IMG/VR virus record: IMGVR_UViG_3300021311_000001
Location: 1-64,000 of that record
From: a virus
Lineage: Duplodnaviria > Caudoviricetes
Length of the DNA: 64,000 nucleotides
Reading direction: 5' to 3' (one strand)
Shown: positions 3,177 through 13,214 of the stretch, piece after piece
Layout: the number at the start of each line of letters is the position of its first letter
How positions within the stretch are numbered: position 1 is the first letter of the stretch
Notes under the pieces: generated by a model
Database searches by the model: none
What the model was told of the DNA's origin: nothing
What the model saw: only the letters and a program-made list of their open reading frames with translations
Made by a program: the position numbers and the translations under genes

Positions 3177-3518
3177 TTAACCCATATCCATTTCGCACAG
3201 AGCGGCCTCGATCTCAGCCTTCCATGCCTCATTTGCCTCGTCGGATTCACACACGGCGGCTTCCAGTTCCGCGATGCTCTCGCCGTGCTCGCCGATAGTC
3301 TTGCCGGCGTCGTACTCGTTGAGTGTCACTTCGTCAAGATCCTCCATGTCGCGGCTCTTGCCGAGAGAGAACACACCAAGAGAAATGGCGATACCCGTGG
3401 CGTGCTCCTTCGTGGTGAGTCCCATATCCCCGTTGACAAGGCGCTTGATCCACGAGGGCTTGTCAACAAGAGCGATGGTCTCGCCATTCTTCTTCACTTC
3501 GTACATACTGTCTCCCAT
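3177..3518 (-). CDS. hypothetical phage protein
   Basis: Overlaps the RT1 stop; C-terminal EIEAALCE repeats. Confidence 0.6.
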   Translation of the reverse strand: MGDSMYEVKKNGETIALVDKPSWIKRLVNGDMGLTTKEHATGIAISLGVFSLGKSRDMEDLDEVTLNEYDAGKTIGEHGESIAELEAAVCESDEANEAWKAEIEAALCEMDMG

Positions 3519-4648
3519 CCTTTCCTGTTCGGATAGAACCCGAACAAAGTTTTGAAATACTGGTTGGTCTGTTCCATGATCCGGAAGCTGTCCCCACGCT
3601 TCATGTGTCCGAGATAGCTGTTATACGCGCATCTGAGATCGTCATACGTCATCAGCCCGTCAGCGATCCGGCCTTTGAACTTCCGCAGCTTGCGCCGCAT
3701 GATGATCGTCGCCCTGCGGCGCATCCTGATGTAGACGCGCCCGTTCTCGTCAAGCGTGAACTTCGTCTTGAGAAAGAAAACGCCCCGCCGAAGCGGGACG
3801 ATCTTCGTTTTCTTGTGATTCAATTCAATCTTGGATTCTGCTGCCTTTTCCGTAAGCATCCGATAGCAATATTCCAGATACTCGCGGCTTTCGTGGATCA
3901 AATGCCCGTCGTCCATATACCTGCCATATCCGCGTATGCCAAGCTGCTCCTTACAGAAGTGGTCAAGCGCGCTCGGTAGCAAAAGCGCGTTCGTCTGCGA
4001 CACCTGACTGCCAAGCCCCAGCCCGCAATCATGGAAATCGCTGATAAATCCATCGGATAATCTGCGAACGTCATCGTAGTAGAGCCGCCTCTTGGACTCA
4101 GCGAAAAGCGGCTCGTGCGCGGCGAGGTTGAAGTAGTCGTGGAAATCGTAGAACAGTACCCATCCGTCACGCCCGTGCTTGCGGTAATACTCCTTCAGAT
4201 GCCGCTCAAAGCGCCGCAGCGCGAAGTCCATACCTCGATTTTGGAGGCTCGCGGTATTGTCATAGATGAACGCGCCGGAAAACGACGGAACGATGCAGTA
4301 GTCGCAAAGGCACTTCTGCACGACGCGCTCCGTAATGTGGACGCTTCGGATATGCCGCAGCTTCCCTCGCTCCACCAGATCGAAGCAGTAGAATTTCCCG
4401 TGGCGGAACGTGCCGTCCAGGATCGCTTGTCTGGAACGCGCCGAGTTGACGATCAGGTTGCTCAGATACTTTTGCGTAGATGCCTTCCATCGGACGTTTT
4501 TCGCCGATTTCTTGCCGGACAGATAAAGATGACGGAACGAGAACACTTCGTCCATCGTTCCGCACGCTTTGCTCCGCGCGAAGCGTTGCTCATCCCGTTT
4601 AGCCTTACGCCTGCGGTAACGCGCTTCGCGTCTTTCTTCACTTGTCAT
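3494..4648 (-). CDS. DGR reverse transcriptase 1 (about 384 aa)
   Basis: ERGKLR, GLGLGSQVSQ, YGRYMDD; likely start MTSEERREARY; downstream of TR1. Confidence 0.95.
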   Translation of the reverse strand: MTSEERREARYRRRKAKRDEQRFARSKACGTMDEVFSFRHLYLSGKKSAKNVRWKASTQKYLSNLIVNSARSRQAILDGTFRHGKFYCFDLVERGKLRHIRSVHITERVVQKCLCDYCIVPSFSGAFIYDNTASLQNRGMDFALRRFERHLKEYYRKHGRDGWVLFYDFHDYFNLAAHEPLFAESKRRLYYDDVRRLSDGFISDFHDCGLGLGSQVSQTNALLLPSALDHFCKEQLGIRGYGRYMDDGHLIHESREYLEYCYRMLTEKAAESKIELNHKKTKIVPLRRGVFFLKTKFTLDENGRVYIRMRRRATIIMRRKLRKFKGRIADGLMTYDDLRCAYNSYLGHMKRGDSFRIMEQTNQYFKTLFGFYPNRKGWETVCTK

Positions 4649-4944
4649 GTATTCGATCTCCCTTTTCTGGGTTCTTTTGCCTCCCGTACAGCTGGAAAAA
4701 TGTGCGCGCGATAGCTGCGTAGCCTCAGTGACCATGAAACGGATATACGCACTTACCTCCGCCATGCAAGCACACCACGCATTTTTACCGCGTGGCGTGC
4801 CGAGCGCGCGTTCCTTACGCGATCGGCAGCGTCCGGTCAGAGGCATCGAGAGGCATGTTTAGCCTTGCGGCAAGGATCAAGCTCTCCTTCCATAAAAGTG
4901 CTCATTCGCCGTATTCGGTTACTTTTCTTGACTGTTTGCTTATG

Positions 4945-5080
4945 GAATCAGGGCGCGACGCCATTGGCGTTACTCGCGTTGTTATTGTTGGTGTTGCCGT
5001 TGCTGTTGACATTGCAGAAATTCGAGTTGCTGCCGTTCCAGTTATTCGGGGAACGCTCCCACCAGTAGTTCGCGGAACCA
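4945..5080 (-). repeat. DGR1 template repeat (TR1)
   Basis: 136 nt, ungapped alignment to 5632-5767; all 17 mismatches at TR adenines; AAC-rich. Confidence 0.95.
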
Positions 5081-5133
5081 CGGGCAGGCTGTCAGACCAC
5101 ATCGTAACGATTCAGAGCTTGTCCTGAATGGTA

Positions 5134-5562
5134 TCAATCGGGCAGATTTGCGTAGCGCGCTCTGTCTGCCTGTTTGACCTTTGCGATCAGCTTCGCTTCC
5201 TCGGCGATATACTTGCCGAACTGTTCCATCGCGTGATCTACCCACGGGAACTTTTCGGGATTCTGCAAGATCGCGTCGTAGAGAAGCTGCAGCTTTGGAT
5301 CAAGATTTTGGAGGGCGCAGTTCGCGGCGATCAGGTGGTCGCGGCGCATCTGAGCCTCGTGCTTGTTCAGCGGAATGATATTGTTCGCGGCGCGAACCTC
5401 GTCATGCACCGTTGAAGCAAGCGCGAAAATCTTCTCCGTCAGATAGGGCGCATAGCGTTTCGGCGCTTTGATGCAAACCGAAAGCGCAAACGCCTCAAGC
5501 TCTTTTGCGGTTTGGATAAACTGCATAGAGCTTTCGTTTCTTTTGGACTTGATAACTGACAT
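5134..5562 (-). CDS. avd: DGR accessory protein Avd 1
   Basis: 142-aa helical protein (MSVIKSKR..., AANNI) between VR and TR. Confidence 0.85.
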   Translation of the reverse strand: MSVIKSKRNESSMQFIQTAKELEAFALSVCIKAPKRYAPYLTEKIFALASTVHDEVRAANNIIPLNKHEAQMRRDHLIAANCALQNLDPKLQLLYDAILQNPEKFPWVDHAMEQFGKYIAEEAKLIAKVKQADRARYANLPD

Positions 5563-5581
5563 AGATCTCTCCTACGCCCTC

Positions 5582-5605
5582 TCCCGCCCCATAGGAGGGG
5601 CGGGA
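5582..5605 (-). promoter_or_regulatory. DGR1 target-recognition hairpin
   Basis: TCCCGCCCC-ATAGGA-GGGGCGGGA just past the target stop codon. Confidence 0.75.
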
Positions 5606-5622
5606 TGGACTTAGATAATAGA

Positions 5623-7881
5623 TTAAAAATTGAAGCAGGGCGCGACGCCACTGGCGCCACTCGCGTAGTGATTGCTGGCGTTGCCGTCGCTGCTGACATT
5701 GCAGAAAAACGAGCTGCTGCCGCTCCAGGTATACGGGGAACGCTCCCACCAGTAGTACGCGGAACCATTGACCTTCTTCACGCGATTGGCAGCCGTATCA
5801 TTGGCCTTGTACCACGCATAGCGCGTACCCTCGTTCGTTCCGCCCTTGGCGTAAGTGGCAGATCCGAAGACCTCCACCTCGGCAGGCAGGAAGAGCTTAT
5901 CCGCCGTCGTGTTGAGCGTCGCCGTGGAAACGTCCTTCGCCGTAGAAACGTTGACCTGCTTGATGGCGTTCTGCGCGCTCGACGGGAAGTAGCCGAGCAT
6001 CGTACCGCTCATCCACGTCCGAAGGTCGGAGTTGTGCCAGCCGTCTGTACTCGCCATGCTCGCTTTCATCTTCTGCGTGGTGTTGAAGCAGTCCACCATC
6101 TGCATGAGGATGCCGGCCTTGCCCGTAGTGGTAGCCGAACCGTATGCGGTCGCGCTCGTCAGAGCGTAGTGGTTGAAGCCCATCACGCGGAATGAGTAGC
6201 TCGTACCGGAAAGCGTGTAGCTGATAGTATCGCCGATAGAGATGTGGCGGTTATAAACACTCACCCACACCTCGCTCGTATTGCTGTTGATGGCGGAGTT
6301 GTTGGAGATGCCGTTTGCGATCTCGCTGATCTGCGCATCGGTCAAACCGGACAGACCGTTGGTATAAGTAACGCCTGCCTGGGCGGATGTGTACGCCACC
6401 GGAAGGAACTGCGCGTTGACCGTCACGGTCTTATCGCTCGGCGTGGTGTAGTTCGTGCAGCCGGTAACGCTGCACGTCACAGTAACCGTTCCGCTTTTGC
6501 CATTCTGACTCGTCACCGTCACGGTGTTGCCGCTCTTGGAAACCGTCGCGACGGTCGTGTCGCTGGACTGCACGCTGACCGTACCATCGTGCTCGCCTCC
6601 GATCGTAAACGTATCCGTGAGCTTGCTCGCGTTGAGCGTGATCGTGCTCTTGCTCACCGTCAATGTACCAGTCTTCTTCGCGATCGTCACGGTTCCGACA
6701 CTCACCGCCGCGACGTCGTTGACATTGCTGTCGCCCACAACGCGATAGCTCACGGCGTAATCGCCGGCTGCCGTCTCGGACGGACTGGTAGCCGCCCACG
6801 ATCCGGAATTGACCTTGTACTGCAGCGTGCCGTAGTTGGTGGAACCGTCCGTGGCGAGAAGCGCGTGCGCGCTGCCGTCGTATGTCGTGTCGCTTGCCTT
6901 GGTCGGCGCGGTAACGGTCGGCGTCACTTTACCGATCGTCCAATCCGGCGTCTTGGCGGAGGTCGTGCCGTCAGACCACTTATAGTCGTCCTTCGGCGTA
7001 AAGCTCGTGGTGTTGTAGGTGCCGGCGTTCGTCTGCCCGATCTCGGTCTTGGTCATCTTCGTGGCGTCCTCATCCGCCCACATCGGCGTCTGCGAGGTGC
7101 CGTCATAGGTCAGCGTCCCGCTCTGGGACGGCACCGTCGCGATGGTGAGTCTGTCAGCCGTGCCGCTCGTGCGGTTCGCGGTGTTGGTGTTGACCGCGCC
7201 CTCCGTGCTTGTCGGGAAGAACGTCACATAGTACGTCGTGCCGTTGGTCAGCCCCGTTGCCGTCAGCGGCGTCGAAGCGTAAGCGTTGCGCGTGTTGCTG
7301 GTAAAGCTCCACGCCGCGTCGGGGTCGTCCGGATCGGTCGCATAGGAACCGGCCTTGACGACGACCTTCGTGCTGCCCCACGTTGCGAGCGTCACGCCGT
7401 CCTGCACGACCGTCGCCGCAGGGTCAGTCCACTCGATCGCGAGCTTGCCGTTGCCGGCCGCGACCGCGCTCATGGAACTCACATTGCCGACCTTGATCGC
7501 CTCCGGCATCGCGTTGAACTCGTCGGCGGGATCGTCGGTGTAAGTCCCCGTGGTCGTATACGGGAACAGCTTGTAGTAATAGGTTGTGCCGTCCGTCAGG
7601 CCGGAATCGGTAAAATAGGTGTTCTGATAGGCGCTGCGCGTCTTGGAGTCCACCACGACCGTACCATCGCGGCGGCTCACGGGAGCACTGCCCGCCTTGC
7701 GGACGAGGATGGTGCCTTTCCACTCGGCAAGCGTCGTGCCGCCGACCACCACGTCTGCTGGGTCAGTCCACTTGACATATACCTTGCCGTGGCTCACCAG
7801 CGTCGTGATGCCGGAGCACGGTGCAAGCGTTACGCCGCCTCCGCCGCCGCCAGCGCCGGAAGGGAAATTAGAAGTAATCAT
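5623..7881 (-). CDS. DGR1 target: tail fibre/adhesin with FN3/Ig-like repeats and C-terminal CLec-like variable domain
   Basis: Two WTDP...TTYY repeats, Thr-rich Ig-like segments, KLFLP..EVFG, YWWERSP; start MITSNF after GGAGG. Confidence 0.88.
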   Translation of the reverse strand: MITSNFPSGAGGGGGGVTLAPCSGITTLVSHGKVYVKWTDPADVVVGGTTLAEWKGTILVRKAGSAPVSRRDGTVVVDSKTRSAYQNTYFTDSGLTDGTTYYYKLFPYTTTGTYTDDPADEFNAMPEAIKVGNVSSMSAVAAGNGKLAIEWTDPAATVVQDGVTLATWGSTKVVVKAGSYATDPDDPDAAWSFTSNTRNAYASTPLTATGLTNGTTYYVTFFPTSTEGAVNTNTANRTSGTADRLTIATVPSQSGTLTYDGTSQTPMWADEDATKMTKTEIGQTNAGTYNTTSFTPKDDYKWSDGTTSAKTPDWTIGKVTPTVTAPTKASDTTYDGSAHALLATDGSTNYGTLQYKVNSGSWAATSPSETAAGDYAVSYRVVGDSNVNDVAAVSVGTVTIAKKTGTLTVSKSTITLNASKLTDTFTIGGEHDGTVSVQSSDTTVATVSKSGNTVTVTSQNGKSGTVTVTCSVTGCTNYTTPSDKTVTVNAQFLPVAYTSAQAGVTYTNGLSGLTDAQISEIANGISNNSAINSNTSEVWVSVYNRHISIGDTISYTLSGTSYSFRVMGFNHYALTSATAYGSATTTGKAGILMQMVDCFNTTQKMKASMASTDGWHNSDLRTWMSGTMLGYFPSSAQNAIKQVNVSTAKDVSTATLNTTADKLFLPAEVEVFGSATYAKGGTNEGTRYAWYKANDTAANRVKKVNGSAYYWWERSPYTWSGSSSFFCNVSSDGNASNHYASGASGVAPCFNF
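5632..5767 (-). repeat. DGR1 variable repeat (VR1)
   Basis: Encodes GSAYYWWERSP...GVAPCF at the target C-terminus. Confidence 0.95.
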
Positions 7882-8014
7882 ATTGCCTGTGCCTCCTTTT
7901 TTCTTACGGTTTGGAAAACGAGGTCGATTTTGGAACGCCTCGTTTGGAGCATTTTGGTTTTTCAGGGCTGCGCCGCCGCGCGGCACTTCCGGAAATGTGC
8001 CGCCCGTACTGCCG

Positions 8015-8422
8015 TCAGCCCAGGAGCGTCACGACAAACGGAATGTCCAGATCGGGCATCTCACCGTCCGCCGAGATCGTAAGCTGCCCCGCCGCCTGTC
8101 CCGTAACGGCGAGCATTGCTTCCCGCGCGACCTGCCTCTGCTCAAACGTCGCGCTCTGGCTGACGTTGATGTCGCCAGCCTGACCGACCTTGAGACCTGT
8201 AACGGAGACAGTCTGCGTAAACGGAGCATCCACGCCGCTCCAAGCGTTCGCGCGCAGAACGCCCGTGACCTGCGTGCTGGAATCCGCCTTTTCGCCGAGC
8301 ACGCGGTCGATGATCTGCATATTGCTCGTTTCCGCCGTTCCGTTCATTTTTTGCCGCCACGTCAAGAACTTGGTCGTGGCGTCGTCCTCGGTATAAAGCC
8401 CGTAGTTTGTGGTTTGACTCAT
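8015..8422 (-). CDS. tail fibre adaptor-like protein
   Basis: C-terminal part resembles an internal domain of the DGR2 target (L..W...QTV.V.G...P..DIP). Confidence 0.6.
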   Translation of the reverse strand: MSQTTNYGLYTEDDATTKFLTWRQKMNGTAETSNMQIIDRVLGEKADSSTQVTGVLRANAWSGVDAPFTQTVSVTGLKVGQAGDINVSQSATFEQRQVAREAMLAVTGQAAGQLTISADGEMPDLDIPFVVTLLG

Positions 8423-8449
8423 GCTTCACCACCTTCTTCTTTTCAAAAA

Positions 8450-9607
8450 TTATTTCCACCGTGGAGCATCCGCGCCGAAAAGCTCCCGATACAGCGTCGT
8501 GATACCCGCACGCTGCTTCCTCGACATCATCTTGGCGTATCGCCCCATCCACGAGCGGAACGCCTGATCGGACTGCTCGCGCGGCATCCGACCATCCCGC
8601 ACGAGCCTCGCGTGCGCGCGCAGCCGCCGCCTCTCCCGTGTCACGGCTTCGGGACAGATGCGCTTCTGCACACGTCCGCGCTCCTCCAGCCGATAGCGGA
8701 CTTTGAGGAAGGTGTAGCAGTCGCCCAGCCGCGTGACGTGCGTTTTTCGCTCGTTGACAAAAAGCCCGTCGCGCCTTGCGATCTCAGCGACCATCCCGAC
8801 CGTATCCTCCAGATACCCGCGCTCGCGATGGATGAGGTACGAATCGTCCATATACCGCCCGTAGCGCCGGAAGCCCCTCACGACCGTAACGAAGTTGTCG
8901 ATCTCGGTCGGGAAGAACACGCCGATGTTCTGCGACACCTGATCCCCGATGTCCAGCGATTTCGGAAGAAATTTTCCGCCCGTTTTCATATCCTCGGAAA
9001 CCTCCGCAAGATACCGCACGGAATCGAATTTTTCGTCCAGCGCCGCCGCATACTGCTCGTCCGTCAGATACGAAACGTCCACGCGAAACCCGCGCAAAAT
9101 CTCCTCCAGAAGCCACATCTCGTCCTCTTCGAGATGTGGAGCGATCTTTTCAAGCACCTTGTCGTGCCGGATGTTGTCGTAATACTTGGAGAAGTCCATA
9201 AAACAGACCCATCCGTTGTTGTCACCGTACTCAAGGTAGAAGTTGTGCAGATCGCGTTCAAACGCCTTCCTCGCCGCGTCCACACCCTTGCCTGTCTGCG
9301 AGGCGAAGTTGTTGTGGATGATGTACGGCGCGAGCTTCGGCGTGAGCACCGCGTCGCAAAGGGCGTGGCGCACCACGCGGTCGCGCATCCTGCCGCCGTG
9401 GACGTGCCGCGTTTTCCCGCGCTCGTTCAAGAGGAAGTCCGAACCCTGCGAGGTCTGATAGGTCTTCTCCGCCAGCTCGTGCCGCAGCCGGTTGATTTCC
9501 GAGAGGAAATCCGTCTCGAACCGCTGCGGCTCCTCCTTCCACGGGCTGCTCCGCATCGACGCGCGGAAGGCGTCGTACAGCACGTTCATGTCGCAAATCG
9601 TTGACAT
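8450..9607 (-). CDS. DGR reverse transcriptase 2 (385 aa)
   Basis: ERGKTR, DFSKYYDNI, IGDQVSQ, YGRYMDD. Confidence 0.95.
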   Translation of the reverse strand: MSTICDMNVLYDAFRASMRSSPWKEEPQRFETDFLSEINRLRHELAEKTYQTSQGSDFLLNERGKTRHVHGGRMRDRVVRHALCDAVLTPKLAPYIIHNNFASQTGKGVDAARKAFERDLHNFYLEYGDNNGWVCFMDFSKYYDNIRHDKVLEKIAPHLEEDEMWLLEEILRGFRVDVSYLTDEQYAAALDEKFDSVRYLAEVSEDMKTGGKFLPKSLDIGDQVSQNIGVFFPTEIDNFVTVVRGFRRYGRYMDDSYLIHRERGYLEDTVGMVAEIARRDGLFVNERKTHVTRLGDCYTFLKVRYRLEERGRVQKRICPEAVTRERRRLRAHARLVRDGRMPREQSDQAFRSWMGRYAKMMSRKQRAGITTLYRELFGADAPRWK

Positions 9608-9830
9608 TTCCTTAACACTCCGCCTCCTGTGGAATATTGCCGTGCTCCCCTCGCGGGGTTAAGACTCGTGCAGGGAGACAGACGCATCCGTTCCCATAAG
9701 CCAAACCGGCACGGCGCGGCTCCGCCGTCAGGCGCTTGCATTTACCCCGCGCGGAAAGCGCGGAAGAAGGACATGGCTTCCTTTCGCATCGGGCGTCTTG
9801 CCTATCTCACGAGGTCTTATCTGACGCCAT

Positions 9831-9950
9831 CGAAATCCGGACGCACGCCATTAGCGTTGGAAGCGCCGTTGTAGTTCGCATTGCCGTTGCTGTTGACATT
9901 AGCGAAATTCGCCGCAGAAACAACGTCGCGCAACCACCAGTTCGAGCGGT
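9831..9950 (-). repeat. DGR2 template repeat (TR2)
   Basis: 120 nt, ungapped alignment to 10738-10857; all 14 mismatches at TR adenines. Confidence 0.95.
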
Positions 9951-9982
9951 CATTCAAGCCATGCCCTATGAAGCGGCTTATT

Positions 9983-10552
9983 TCAGCCGTTTTCACCGTT
10001 TTTCTGTGTGTTCTTCCTGCCCTTCGGCTTCAAAAGCCGGTTGTCCGCCGTCCGCACGCCCTTGTAGAGCGCCACCTGCGCGTCGATCATATCCGCGAAT
10101 CTCGCATATCGGTTCAGGTCGACGGGCAGCGTGCGGATAATGTAGTGGATCTCCTGCTTGAGCACATAGCATTGCGCGATTGCGGCGTCGATGTGCTTCC
10201 GCCGCTCGCGGAACTCGTCCTCCTTGGCGGGCGTCTCGGACGGATAGATCGAATTGCCAAACGTAAACTCGGATTCGATATTGCGAAGAATGGCGAGCAC
10301 CGCGTCCTTCTCCTTGTCGATGAACCATCGGGTCATCGCGCGGCTTTTCTGCTCCCAGCGCTCGGTCAGCTCATCCACGTTGTCGTTCGCCGCGTGCATG
10401 GAGCGATACCGCTCGATCTTCTTCGCGTACTTCTCCTCGGAAAACCCGAAGTTGTAGAACATCAGCTCCGTCACGCTGTCGCGCAGCTTGTAAAAGTGGT
10501 GCTGCGCCTCAAATCTGGATTCCTTCCTCCGGCTCAATGGCACGTTTGACAC
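9983..10552 (-). CDS. avd: DGR accessory protein Avd 2
   Basis: VPLSRRKES..., GNSIYP...RR pattern; located between VR2 and TR2. Confidence 0.8.
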   Translation of the reverse strand: MSNVPLSRRKESRFEAQHHFYKLRDSVTELMFYNFGFSEEKYAKKIERYRSMHAANDNVDELTERWEQKSRAMTRWFIDKEKDAVLAILRNIESEFTFGNSIYPSETPAKEDEFRERRKHIDAAIAQCYVLKQEIHYIIRTLPVDLNRYARFADMIDAQVALYKGVRTADNRLLKPKGRKNTQKNGENG

Positions 10553-10697
10553 AGCCTCGCCTCCCTTCTGCGGCAATCCCCGCCCATCTGGTGTTGTGCG
10601 CTGCGGCAGTCCCAGCTATTCGGATGCTGGGACTCAGCCATGTTTCGCGGTTGCCCCGTCAGGGGCGAGCGAAACGGCGATAAAAACAAGTAATCGA

Positions 10698-10718
10698 CCC
10701 CGCCCACAAGGGGCGGGG
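10698..10718 (-). promoter_or_regulatory. DGR2 target-recognition hairpin
   Basis: CCCCGCCC-ACAAG-GGGCGGGG just past the target stop codon. Confidence 0.75.
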
Positions 10719-10726
10719 ATTGGAGA

Positions 10727-13147
10727 TTACTTGATAGCGAAAGCCGGACGCACGCCAAGAGCGCTGGAAGCGCCGTGGCAGTTCGCATTGCCGCCGCCGG
10801 TGACATTAGCGAAAGACGCCGCAGAAACAACGTCGCGCAACCACCAGGCCGAGCGGTTGCAGATGCGCGTCGGGTCGAGCCGGAACAGCGCAAACTGCGT
10901 CGTGTCGATAGTGTAGATGTACGGAATGGTCGTGCCATTGTTGGCGGGCGTAAAGATATACGAGCCGTAGACGTTGATCTCGTTCATCAGGTCAACGGTC
11001 GAATCCACCCACGCGCCTGCGGTCGGGATGCCGTTCGAGACCGTATTCGTGAACAGCTCGCGCTTCGAGAGGATATGCGCCGAACCAAACGCGCTGTTGA
11101 TGGTGGTCTTGGCGTTTGCGAGGTTTGCCGTATACATCTGCGAGCCGATGTAACCGCCCGTCGTGACGTTGGAGTCGTTCATCTTCGCGGTGTAGAGGTT
11201 CGTGTCGGGGACGATGACGACGTGGTGCGTCGAGCAGGCGGTATCGCCCTTGCCGTACCAGTAGTCGAAATCCACAATGCGCCAGTTTACGCCGCCGATC
11301 GTCCAGTAGTCGCCGATGTAGAGGTCGTCAAACGTACCCGCACTGATAGCCGCGTACTGCTCCGCCGTAACGGACGAGCCGAGGTACTTACCGCGATAGA
11401 TGTTCGCGTGCATACGCGCCGCGCCGAGAACAGCCGTGCTCGGCAGAGCTTGGATCGCGTTGTACACCGCGTTCGAGGTGGCCGGCCGCATATTGCCGTC
11501 TGTTATGGAATCAACAGGGGTCAAATCGTGCCATTCGCCCCACACACGCGGAGAAACGGTCGCCAATGACCTCATAATAAGGTTTCCGCCAGACCCTTTG
11601 AGAATGTATTGCTGTTCATTATTGCCGCCTGCCGCGCCGCGAACATGGAACATGATGCAGTAACCGATGTTATCGGGTACGTTTGCGGGTAAAGAATTGC
11701 TCGCCCACGCATAAACGCCGACCGTATTAAGCGCGTCAATATCGTCTGCGGATGTCAGAATAGTTGCCATACCGCTCAATTTCACGGTATCAAGCGCACT
11801 CAAAGCACCCTCAACCGTGGACGCACCCGCAATAGCCGTTGCAAGGGCTTTCGTCTGATAGTCGTGCAGGTCAAAGGCGTTTCCCATCAGATTGAACAGA
11901 TAGGTGTTTGCTCCCGCCTTGATGATACCCACGTTGTCGCCGATGTTGATGGTCTGTCCGGCACCCTGCAAAAACAGCGCGGTTGTCGTGCCGCTGTCGG
12001 TCATCTGATACACGTTGCCGACATTCGCTTCGATAAGCAAGGCGGAAGTCAGGCTGGCGCATGCAAGGTCGCCACGCGGCGTGTAGATGCTCGACAGGGC
12101 GTTGTTGATGGCAGAATAGACCGCGATACTCTCCACAAGGTCATGGCTGTTCGGTTGAACATGGTCGGTGGAGTTTTTAGCCGCCGCTGTGCCGAGCGTC
12201 GGCTTGTTCTGGATGTAGGAATCCGCCGCATCGTCGTCCTCCTCCCAATCCGCCTGCACGTTCTTCTGCGCCTCCGCCTCGATGTCGCCGAGCTTGTTTT
12301 TCTCAGCCGTTGTGAAATCCTCGGTGGAAAGCCCCTTGCCGCTGACCTTATCGACCTTGCCGTTGTCCAGCTCATTGATTGCCTCGACCGCGCTGGATTT
12401 GTTGGTCGTCGTCAACTGAGAGACGTCGCCAAGGTCGGCGGCACTCGCCCAGCTCCCGCCGCCACCAGCGGCGCTTCCTTGCGGGAAGATGATAACGGCG
12501 ATTGGAATATCGACGCTCGGCACGTCGCCCATCGCGGTGATGGTAACACTGTCCGTACCCTGAGCGGAAACGCGCAAAGCCGCGTCGCACGCCGCCTCGT
12601 ATGCCGCCGTCGTAATGTCCTGCGTAAGTCCCGCCGTACCGTTGGTAGCGGAGTCGACGCCGCTAACCGTCACGGTCTGCTCGTTGCCAGTCCAACCGGA
12701 TGAAAGCAGCGTCGCGAGCACAACGGAGGAATCGCCCACAAGAAGCGTCTGCCAGTCATCGTTCGCGTCAAGATACGAGAGAACGCCGGTCGCAGCGTTG
12801 TACTTCAAACCGTGGACGCCGTTCGTGGAAAGAATCGTCTGCTCGATGTGCTCGCTTGCGCTCTCACCATCCGCCCAGAAGTGCCACTCGCCGCCGATAT
12901 AGCGCCAGAGCTTCGTATCCTCGCGGACAAAATAGAACTTGTCGAGCGGCGAGACGATGGCCTCACGCGCCTCTTCGGTTTCGATTTCCTCGATGTCGCC
13001 AAGGAAAAGCCGCGTACCGCCGAAGTCGTAGCAAAGCTGCTTCGTATCGGTCAGAATGAGGAACAAACCGTTGTCGATCGGGACAGTAGTGTAGTTTTTT
13101 GCCTTGCTTTTGGTCGCCGTAGCGAAATGCGCAAAAGTATTCGGCAT
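10727..13147 (-). CDS. DGR2 target: tail fibre/receptor-binding protein with CLec-like variable domain
   Basis: KVDKVSGKGLSTEDFT fibre motif, FDDLYIGDYW, WWLRD C-terminus containing VR2. Confidence 0.88.
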   Translation of the reverse strand: MPNTFAHFATATKSKAKNYTTVPIDNGLFLILTDTKQLCYDFGGTRLFLGDIEEIETEEAREAIVSPLDKFYFVREDTKLWRYIGGEWHFWADGESASEHIEQTILSTNGVHGLKYNAATGVLSYLDANDDWQTLLVGDSSVVLATLLSSGWTGNEQTVTVSGVDSATNGTAGLTQDITTAAYEAACDAALRVSAQGTDSVTITAMGDVPSVDIPIAVIIFPQGSAAGGGGSWASAADLGDVSQLTTTNKSSAVEAINELDNGKVDKVSGKGLSTEDFTTAEKNKLGDIEAEAQKNVQADWEEDDDAADSYIQNKPTLGTAAAKNSTDHVQPNSHDLVESIAVYSAINNALSSIYTPRGDLACASLTSALLIEANVGNVYQMTDSGTTTALFLQGAGQTINIGDNVGIIKAGANTYLFNLMGNAFDLHDYQTKALATAIAGASTVEGALSALDTVKLSGMATILTSADDIDALNTVGVYAWASNSLPANVPDNIGYCIMFHVRGAAGGNNEQQYILKGSGGNLIMRSLATVSPRVWGEWHDLTPVDSITDGNMRPATSNAVYNAIQALPSTAVLGAARMHANIYRGKYLGSSVTAEQYAAISAGTFDDLYIGDYWTIGGVNWRIVDFDYWYGKGDTACSTHHVVIVPDTNLYTAKMNDSNVTTGGYIGSQMYTANLANAKTTINSAFGSAHILSKRELFTNTVSNGIPTAGAWVDSTVDLMNEINVYGSYIFTPANNGTTIPYIYTIDTTQFALFRLDPTRICNRSAWWLRDVVSAASFANVTGGGNANCHGASSALGVRPAFAIK
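10738..10857 (-). repeat. DGR2 variable repeat (VR2)
   Basis: Encodes RSAWWLRDVV...GVRPAF. Confidence 0.95.
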
Positions 13148-13177
13148 AGTCTTCTACCCCCTTTTCTTTGAATGGTT

Positions 13178-13214
13178 AAAAAATAGGGGAGCTATGAGAT
13201 TTCACAGCTCCCCT
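13178..13214 (-). terminator. intrinsic terminator
   Basis: AGGGGAGC...GCTCCCCT followed by a T-run on the minus strand. Confidence 0.6.

Follow-up and report, generated by a model that had tools for sequence, protein, structure and literature searches.

Introduction

The IMG/VR virus record IMGVR_UViG_3300021311_000001 (Duplodnaviria; Caudoviricetes) is complete at 126,284 bp and ends in a direct terminal repeat of 127 bp; its first 64 kb, referred to hereafter as the window, are the stretch of DNA analyzed in this article. Near the beginning of the window two diversity-generating retroelements (DGRs) lie one after the other, with all their genes on the minus strand. Both cassettes show the order target gene ending in a variable repeat (VR), hairpin, avd, template repeat (TR), structured RNA and reverse transcriptase (RT) gene, and a single gene coding for a 135-aa protein separates one cassette from the other (Table 1). 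The systems were named by position: DGR-A (8450-13147) is transcribed first, DGR-B (3494-7881) second, and DGR-C lies outside the window. DGR-A and DGR-B are DGR2 and DGR1, respectively, of a preliminary description that was made from the nucleotide sequence alone.

Relatives of the terminase (70-73% identity) are found in Oscillospiraceae-type genomes, including Dysosmobacter, Hominicoprocola and Butyricicoccus, which suggests the host group of what would be a complete tailed phage of the animal gut.

TABLE 1. Features of the two tandem DGRs (window positions) and of the third system of the same record (genome positions).
Feature	Position	Strand	Description
target-A	10727-13147	-	806 aa, tail-fibre-like; last ~240 aa DUF6273-type domain ending in VR-A
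VR-A	10738-10857	-	Variable repeat at the 3' end of target-A; 120 nt
hairpin A	10698-10718	-	8-bp GC stem CCCCGCCC/GGGCGGGG, 5-nt loop; begins 9 nt past the target-A stop codon
avd-A	9983-10552	-	189 aa; diverged, predicted Avd-like four-helix-bundle accessory protein
TR-A	9831-9950	-	120-nt template repeat; 25 adenines, 10 AAY codons in the VR frame
spacer RNA A	9608-9830	-	Structured RNA between TR-A and RT-A; 223 nt
RT-A	8450-9607	-	385-aa DGR-type reverse transcriptase
135-aa gene	8015-8422	-	Between the cassettes; homologous to target-A residues 140-221
target-B	5623-7881	-	752 aa, tail-fibre-like; C-terminal DUF6273 domain ending in VR-B
VR-B	5632-5767	-	Variable repeat at the 3' end of target-B; 136 nt
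hairpin B	5583-5604	-	8-bp GC stem CCCGCCCC/GGGGCGGG, 6-nt loop; after VR-B
avd-B	5134-5562	-	142-aa accessory protein in the Avd position
TR-B	4945-5080	-	136-nt template repeat; 39 adenines, 16 AAY codons
RT-2 RNA (Rfam RF03077)	4659-4936	-	Between TR-B and the RT-B start codon
RT-B	3494-4648	-	384-aa DGR-type reverse transcriptase
DGR-C target 1	genome 87357-87968	+	203- or 210-aa DUF6273 protein; VR 87855-87935
DGR-C target 2 (remote)	genome 74313-74945	+	Small DUF6273 protein; VR 74826-74906
avd-C	genome 87978-88343	+	phrog_3206 'Avd protein of DGR', 4e-13
TR-C	genome 88374-88454	+	Template repeat matching two VRs
RT-C	genome 88666-89583	+	RVT_1; LGNQCSQ and YMDD

Two Complete DGR Cassettes in Tandem

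A repeat search of the window returned two direct repeat pairs, 4942-5080/5629-5767 and 9831-9950/10738-10857. Each VR terminates a long open reading frame (ORF), and each TR precedes an ORF with an RVT_1 match above the Pfam cut-off. The preliminary description had proposed two complete DGRs in tandem with one adaptor gene between them, and all parts were located where it had placed them in both cassettes, as was the 135-aa gene. Three of its gene boundaries had to be revised. RT-B does not start at 4846 but at the ATG at 4648, since the RT-2 RNA fills the space between TR-B and this codon; the start of target-B was moved to 7881 according to the ORF caller, and relatives align from residue 2 of the resulting protein; and the ORF 9993-10328 (111 aa) proposed as avd-A was rejected as a spurious, arginine-rich frame with no matches. 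The true avd-A is in the frame of the ORF 9983-10576 and its start is probably the GTG at 10552.

DGR-type RTs are recognized by a motif-4 GxxxSQ signature together with a YxDD catalytic box. A profile search of the whole genome found three RVT_1 matches, and the corresponding proteins RT-A, RT-B and RT-C are all above the cut-off and all keep GxxxSQ and YMDD. RT-A (IGDQVSQ at residue 220, YMDD at 252) matches RVT_1 at 1.4e-8 and phrog_1423 at 5e-50, and RT-B (LGSQVSQ at residue 212, YMDD at 244) matches the same families at 1.5e-9 and 2e-67. RT-A is 54-57% identical to the RTs of two other viral contigs, L003 and L004.

In the DGR of Bordetella phage BPP-1 the GC-rich 3' end of the VR and the hairpin that follows it are elements of target recognition. 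GC-rich hairpins with 8-bp stems also follow both VRs here, where they may have the same function; VR-A ends 11 nt and VR-B 9 nt before the first base of the stop codon of its target gene, and the hairpin after VR-A is kept in L003 and L004. Both cassettes combine the RT signature with an adenine-biased TR/VR pair, a VR at the 3' end of the target and TR adenines in codon positions 1 and 2. On these features both are ordinary DGRs that work by the known mechanism.

In the window (10637-10681, minus strand) a 45-nt stem-loop element was noticed within a stretch of ~115 nt between the hairpin of VR-A and avd-A that is absent from L003 and L004. In the public sequencing runs X2, X4, X5 and X6 (described below) the element is found in numerous flanking contexts, and its depth there is very high (up to ~700). 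There is no second copy in the genome and none in 19 loci at up to 3 mismatches, and its 34-nt core has no exact copy in IMG/VR.

Each Variable Repeat Is Written From Its Own Template

TR-A and VR-A differ at 14 of 120 nt, and all 14 mismatches are at TR adenines (14 of the 25 adenines changed). The same is true of the 17 mismatches between TR-B and VR-B over 136 nt (17/17); one further C/A mismatch is located three bases past the TR-B/VR-B homology, at its edge. Computed from the adenine fractions of the templates (25/120 and 39/136), the chance of adenine-only mismatches is ~3e-10 for DGR-A and ~6e-10 for DGR-B. The adenines are distributed over codon positions 1, 2 and 3 as 11/13/0 in TR-A, with none in the third position, and as 20/18/1 in TR-B. 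Target-A has 14 variable codons, corresponding to ~10^14 proteins, and target-B has 23, corresponding to ~10^23.

At non-adenine positions neither VR departs from its own TR, though TR-A and TR-B differ from each other at many of these positions; templating is therefore separate, each VR being written from the TR of its own cassette. When the complete genome was scanned with adenines masked, neither TR-A nor TR-B had a VR other than its own.

The components themselves are also divergent. RT-A and RT-B are 28% identical (28-36% among the three RTs of the genome), no BLASTP match was found between Avd-A and Avd-B, and the targets are 25-34% identical, only over about the last 85-220 residues, so the earlier view that RTs, Avds, TRs and targets are too different for a recent duplication holds. 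A 79-nt local alignment between the two TRs has ~75% identity and contains an exact 20-mer. The spacer RNA of DGR-B is of the RT-2 family and that of DGR-A is a covarying RNA of another family, without Rfam match, and from the different Avd and spacer-RNA families we infer that the RT/Avd machineries probably do not cross-react.

Variation in Natural Populations

Ten public runs hold the 9.8-kb stretch that comprises both cassettes, five of them with 0.96-0.99 of its sampled words, and runs X2, X4, X5 and X6 were compared. Long contigs of X2, X4 and X5 have 0 differences over 3400-13200 except at VR-A and VR-B. VR-B is present in X2 as three alternative contigs with 16, 20 and 20 differences, whose depths (7.4, 6.5 and 8.4) sum to the flanking depth; X4 has two alternatives (21 and 16 differences) and X5 one (20). 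At VR-A there are two alleles in X4 (12 and 15 differences) and one in X5 (11). Among the 40 of 267 variant rows that were listed, all 23 variant sites inside the VRs are TR adenines (21/21 in VR-B and 2/2 in VR-A). The templates are constant, with 0 differences in TR-A in the contigs of X2 and X5 and 0 in TR-B in the long contigs of X2, X4 and X5, and the contig graph breaks exactly at TRs and VRs. Both VRs thus vary at adenine sites in natural populations while the surrounding 9.8 kb is invariant. The adenine-specific variation at both VRs that the preliminary description had proposed to look for is present in these contigs, neither VR is constant, and both RTs are motif-intact.

Variants at 9862-9873 were rejected as variation of TR-A: all come from one X2 contig of depth 1175, with joints, which was read as another abundant DGR-A-type element in that sample. 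Run X6, from a different study and with 0.36 of the words, yielded pieces 93-99% like parts of both cassettes; these could not be linked to one genome and were not used.

Accessory Proteins and Spacer RNAs

The 189-aa Avd-A has no match in PHROGs or NCBIfam, and a PDB sequence search with it gave 0 matches. It has 392 metagenome homologues, of which the 120 listed are without a precomputed Pfam domain. Its AlphaFold2 model (pLDDT 85) was aligned with VIA-align to 48,161 chains, and the top four matches were 2gsc_A (Z 14.0), 2rld_A (13.4), 8ub7_B (12.8) and 4dwl_A (12.8), with root-mean-square deviations (rmsd) of 2.0-2.5 A over 106-114 residues. 8ub7_B is a chain of a DGR ribonucleoprotein entry, 4dwl_A is the Avd of Bordetella phage, and 2gsc and 2rld are entries that we take to be members of the Avd family. 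According to a warning of the tool, Z below ~13 can reflect a generic arrangement in helical bundles, and Foldseek found nothing at E<=0.001 with the same model. The assignment is made because Avd structures rank as the top four, more than on account of Z itself, and the model points to an Avd fold, a four-helix bundle encoded between target and TR.

Avd-B matches phrog_30516 (function unknown) at 2.7e-14 and is 31-35% identical to the gene at the same position in relatives. In hhalign it shows a weak match to the Avd-A family (probability 53%, E 1.3e-4, over 46 columns) and a probability of 1.5% with Avd-C.

The RT-2 RNA of DGR-B scores 125.3 bits against a gathering score of 40 (E 1.6e-29) over the full model (1-222), and the same RNA lies at the same place after the TR in the related phages L008, L014 and L016. 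The DGR-B copy (278 nt) scores below those of relatives, which reach 169-179 bits.

The spacer of DGR-A gave no Rfam match at E<=1. RNA of this type is conserved in 28 loci, the window and 27 IMG/VR loci (within L039-L074), over which 37 base pairs are predicted, 26 of them with compensatory changes. Of the cells, 97.0% are paired, compared with 84.4% in shuffles (0/500 reach the observed value) and 32-54% when partners were slid; the structure was predicted on the same alignment that was used for scoring, which somewhat favours it. Two of the helices pair the last TR bases with sequence just downstream. The DGR-A-type spacer can be regarded as a well-supported predicted structured RNA without Rfam match.

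Targets and Their Place in the Tail Module

Upstream of the cassettes the minus strand carries a structural block with the large terminase (TerL), portal, tape measure protein, Dit, a minor tail protein and several small genes, followed by target-A. Between target-A and the gene before it there is a strong terminator-like hairpin (window 13185-13214, minus strand) whose 13-bp stem precedes a T run, so the DGR block may have its own transcription unit. A promoter scan performed no better than chance (4 found vs 3.8 expected).

Target-B matches Pfam DUF6273 at 3.8e-22. Target-A has a weak match to the same family (8.7e-4, below the cut-off); 27 of its 30 ESM-Atlas language-model feature hits are DUF6273 clusters, and its C-terminal 240 aa are 60-62% identical to the targets of L002-L004. 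PDB sequence searches with target-A and target-B gave 0 matches.

The last 193 aa of target-B (window 5626-6204, minus strand) were modeled with AlphaFold2 (pLDDT 95.5). The best VIA-align match of this tip is 9qa6_A (Z 14.7, rmsd 2.1 A over 155 residues, 24% identity), within residues 50-282 of an IgA peptidase of Thomasclavelia ramosa, and 9qa6 is also the single Foldseek match at E<=0.001. The other listed VIA-align matches are mostly C-type-lectin-like domains with Z of ~4.6-5.7, many of them titled C-type lectin or CRD. Two variable proteins of DGRs, TvpA (2y3c, Z 6.3) and Mtd (1yu0, Z 4.8), are also among the listed matches, both at modest Z. The model argues for display of VR-B on a C-type-lectin-like fold.

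The 135-aa gene has no Pfam or PHROG family. It is conserved (62%) just upstream of the target-B homologues of relatives, where its domain also ends a large gene in the place of target-A (L008 9248-9975). The module shared by the 135-aa gene and target-A thus recurs on neighbouring fibre-like genes.

A Third DGR in the Same Genome

DGR-C occupies genome 74313-89583, equivalent to L001 2314-17584. Its two targets are DUF6273 proteins of 203 and 210 aa with a VR at the end of each. Mismatches to TR-C are at adenines in 19 of 20 cases for VR3b and 15 of 17 for VR3a (the VRs beginning at 87855 and 74826, respectively, as listed). The genes around the targets are non-structural, with a methyltransferase-like gene and an SPFH gene as neighbours. 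The spacer of DGR-C gave no Rfam match at E<=1.

Genome 87263-92999 has a near-identical counterpart in the 5.5-kb viral contig L020, the only differences being a 225-nt deletion in the RT-C of L020 and 9 substitutions. At all 9 sites L020 keeps A and the genome has G or T, and all 9 are TR-C adenine positions (9/9), so DGR-C was recently active.

The present state of RT-C is uncertain. The GTG used as its start by relatives (L021) reads GCA here, in-frame initiation could next occur 35 codons further on, and the ATG found 5 nt before the lost GTG is in another frame (L001 16560-16670, genome ~88559-88669). The gene could encode a truncated RT, use an unusual start or contain a frameshift such as the one reported for the RT of Quimbyvirus (PMC8008677). 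Just downstream of RT-C there is a tRNA gene (L001 18014-18099, genome ~90013-90098) that is conserved in L021 and L022.

Relatives and Origin of the Cassettes

A megablast search of 3400-13200 against GenBank phages gave no match, and IMG/VR pattern scans based on RT-B or on the gene that precedes target-A returned no relative; the near relatives of the whole phage found in the searches made are metagenome contigs only. Relatives that share the target-B shaft (N-terminal 425 aa, 58%), the 135-aa gene (62%) and the neighbouring tail genes have one DGR after that gene, and where target-A would stand they have a gene that carries no DGR. Identity to DGR-B falls to 34-35% for their Avd and RT. 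The tip, Avd and RT of DGR-A are 54-64% identical to those of cassettes in unrelated viral contigs of 17-31 kb. From the conserved target-B shaft beside divergent Avd and RT, and from the likeness of DGR-A to unrelated contigs, we infer that each cassette (lectin tip, avd, TR and RT) may have been acquired as a module onto a conserved fibre shaft.

Among 36 DGR-A-type IMG/VR loci, 35 have one RT region within the fetched flanks, 1 has none and 0 have two, and a second RT nearby was found in 0 of 8 DGR-B-type loci. The records of ten relatives (four of them at least 90% complete) contain one RVT_1 match in 8 cases and none in 2, which are incomplete. None of the relatives examined shares the tandem pair with this phage.

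Two further observations concern these relatives. Five of 14 related viral contigs (L007, L011, L013, L015 and L017) end within or at the VR of the target-B homologue, as expected of an assembly break at a hypervariable site. In L006 (12116-12757) a target-B-like shaft (75% identical) carries a different DGR, with no avd between VR and TR and an Rfam RT-18 RNA after the TR.

Interpretation and Alternative Explanations

The reading that we favour, with a probability of roughly 80%, is that of a complete gut phage whose tail module ends in a tandem of two complete DGRs, each using its own template. In each cassette the RT, presumably assisted by the Avd-like protein of that cassette, would reverse-transcribe an RNA made up of TR and spacer while misreading adenines, and the cDNA would replace the VR at the 3' end of the target gene of that cassette. 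Rewriting would affect 14 codons of target-A and 23 of target-B on the C-type-lectin-like tips of two fibre-like proteins of ~750-800 aa. Two receptor-binding fibres would then be diversified in parallel, giving combinatorial variation of host range, and DGR-C would separately diversify two small non-structural proteins. The role of the targets as receptor-binding tail fibres is proposed on the basis of their position at the end of the tape measure protein-Dit-tail module and of the C-type-lectin-like tip.

Several points weigh against this reading. None of the three accessory proteins reaches a Pfam family at E<=0.01: this was the outcome for Avd-B and Avd-C themselves, and at the avd position of DGR-A the Pfam scan took in the spurious ORF 9993-10328, the true Avd-A being scanned against PHROGs and NCBIfam. 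Avd-B is judged probably Avd-like from its position and a weak profile match. The lectin fold was modeled for target-B alone, and the tip of target-A is considered C-type-lectin-like through its likeness to DUF6273. Neither target has a fibre annotation, Pfam giving DUF6273 alone and PHROGs families of unknown function. The population evidence consists of Logan contigs, from which rare variants are dropped; X2 and X4 are possible sources of this very DNA, and all runs are 2018 faecal metagenomes of similar size that may belong to one campaign. In X2, VR-A is identical to the window. Finally, the exact 20-mer shared by the TRs and the near-identical hairpin stems make some cross-talk possible.

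These last similarities are what would be expected if the cassettes were not orthogonal, one RT/Avd using both templates or cDNA homing to the other VR, so that the pair would amount to a redundant single system. Together with the ~75% identity of the TRs over 79 nt and the common domain family at the end of both targets, they keep this alternative in view, though it is unlikely: no chimeric VR was seen (0 non-adenine mismatches to the own TR, and all listed population variants at adenine sites), both RTs are intact and only 28% identical, the Avds have no BLAST similarity and the spacer RNAs are of different families. Similarly improbable is that the diversified proteins are not receptor-binding fibres at all but, for instance, decorations or adhesins that bind mucus or glycans, with a benefit other than host range. 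The missing annotation in Pfam, PHROGs and PDB would fit such a role, as would the IgA peptidase of a gut bacterium as best structural match of the target-B tip, and one DGR-C target, which has the same domain, weakly matches a Hoc-like head-decoration PHROG family, both DGR-C targets being encoded among non-structural genes. The target genes, however, close the tail module, downstream of Dit and the minor tail protein, and the target-B shaft and the small upstream gene keep their place in related phages. The Mtd protein of Bordetella phage carries its variable tip at the C-terminus, a layout to which the lengths of the targets (752 and 806 aa) and the position of their tips conform.

A decaying passenger cassette, whose VR differences would be old, would agree with the VR-A of X2, but it is very improbable given that both RTs are full length with their catalytic motifs, that VR-A has two alleles in X4 and another in X5, and VR-B up to three per run, between identical flanks, and that neither TR/VR pair has non-A mismatches. 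Least credible of all is a chimera of two phages joined by assembly at 7900-8450, which the preliminary description had raised as a danger. Assemblies do often break at VRs, as the related loci that end there illustrate; against this, contigs assembled separately in three runs (X2 5758-9939, X4 5758-9866 and X5 6679-8696) cross 7900-8450 with 0 differences, so the tandem join is not a chimera, and the 135-aa gene and target-B shaft are syntenic in relatives and the record closes with its terminal repeat.

A stronger form of the favoured reading, in which the tandem pair and DGR-C constitute three mutually orthogonal DGRs, each with its own RT, Avd type and structured template RNA and operating in the same infected cell without cross-templating, is an evenly balanced proposition.

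Implications

No new mechanism is involved; the value of the locus is in its arrangement, three divergent and recently active systems in 126 kb. It offers a natural test of how DGRs achieve specificity for their own template and target, be it through the RT, Avd, the spacer RNA or the 3' end of the VR, and this question bears on the construction of several non-interfering DGR-based mutagenesis tools. With two fibre tips varied at once, receptor recognition would be combinatorial if both bind receptors. If orthogonality were true, ~10^14 x 10^23 fibre-tip combinations would be accessible, in addition to two intracellular proteins varied separately, and the phage would represent a natural, ready-made set of non-interfering modules for targeted mutagenesis. 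What is seen in relatives points to DGR cassettes that travel as modules, lectin tip included; if so, they would spread as plug-in units (lectin tip, avd, TR, RNA and RT) that can be stacked on neighbouring fibre genes.

Comparison With Known Systems

The DGR of Bordetella phage BPP-1 comprises mtd with its VR, avd, the TR, a spacer RNA and brt. DGR-A and DGR-B resemble it in the order target-avd-TR-RNA-RT, in the adenine-specific differences between TR and VR, in the VR at the tip of a predicted lectin fold and in the GC hairpin after the VR, and the model of Avd-A aligns with the Bordetella Avd 4dwl_A at Z 12.8 and rmsd 2.0 A over 106 residues. The differences from BPP-1 are the presence of three systems in one genome, two of them adjacent; the 189-aa length of Avd-A; tips of the DUF6273 type, distantly Mtd-like (Z 4.8); and spacers of the RT-2 family (B) and of a family absent from Rfam (A).

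Possession of several DGRs has been described in cellular genomes. Of the complete genomes in which DGRs occur, about 10% carry two or more, and five near-identical copies in Syntrophobotulus glycolicus are the upper count (PMC5758913); Trichodesmium erythraeum has two DGR RTs (PMC8867640), and up to five DGRs occur in Bacteroides isolates (bioRxiv 2024.11.15.621889). They resemble the present case in that several RT/TR systems coexist and each serves separate targets; the difference is one of scale, megabase chromosomes there versus three divergent systems (RTs 28-36% identical) in 126 kb of phage DNA here, with a distance of 1.2 kb between two of them. In the literature searched no description was found of a phage with two or three independent DGRs, and the supplements of PMC8144416 and PMC5758913 may list such contigs.

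The gut phage Quimbyvirus provides a parallel in that it also diversifies structural and non-structural proteins of lectin type. According to its description, one RT and one TR serve both targets, a lectin-domain protein encoded after the tail-fibre genes and another encoded among non-structural genes near methyltransferases (PMC8008677). The targets of DGR-C are likewise located beside a methyltransferase-like gene. The present phage differs from Quimbyvirus in using separate RT/Avd/TR sets for its structural and non-structural targets, and the stacking of three DGRs within a single phage, with a tandem pair acting on adjacent fibre-like genes, is an unusual arrangement.

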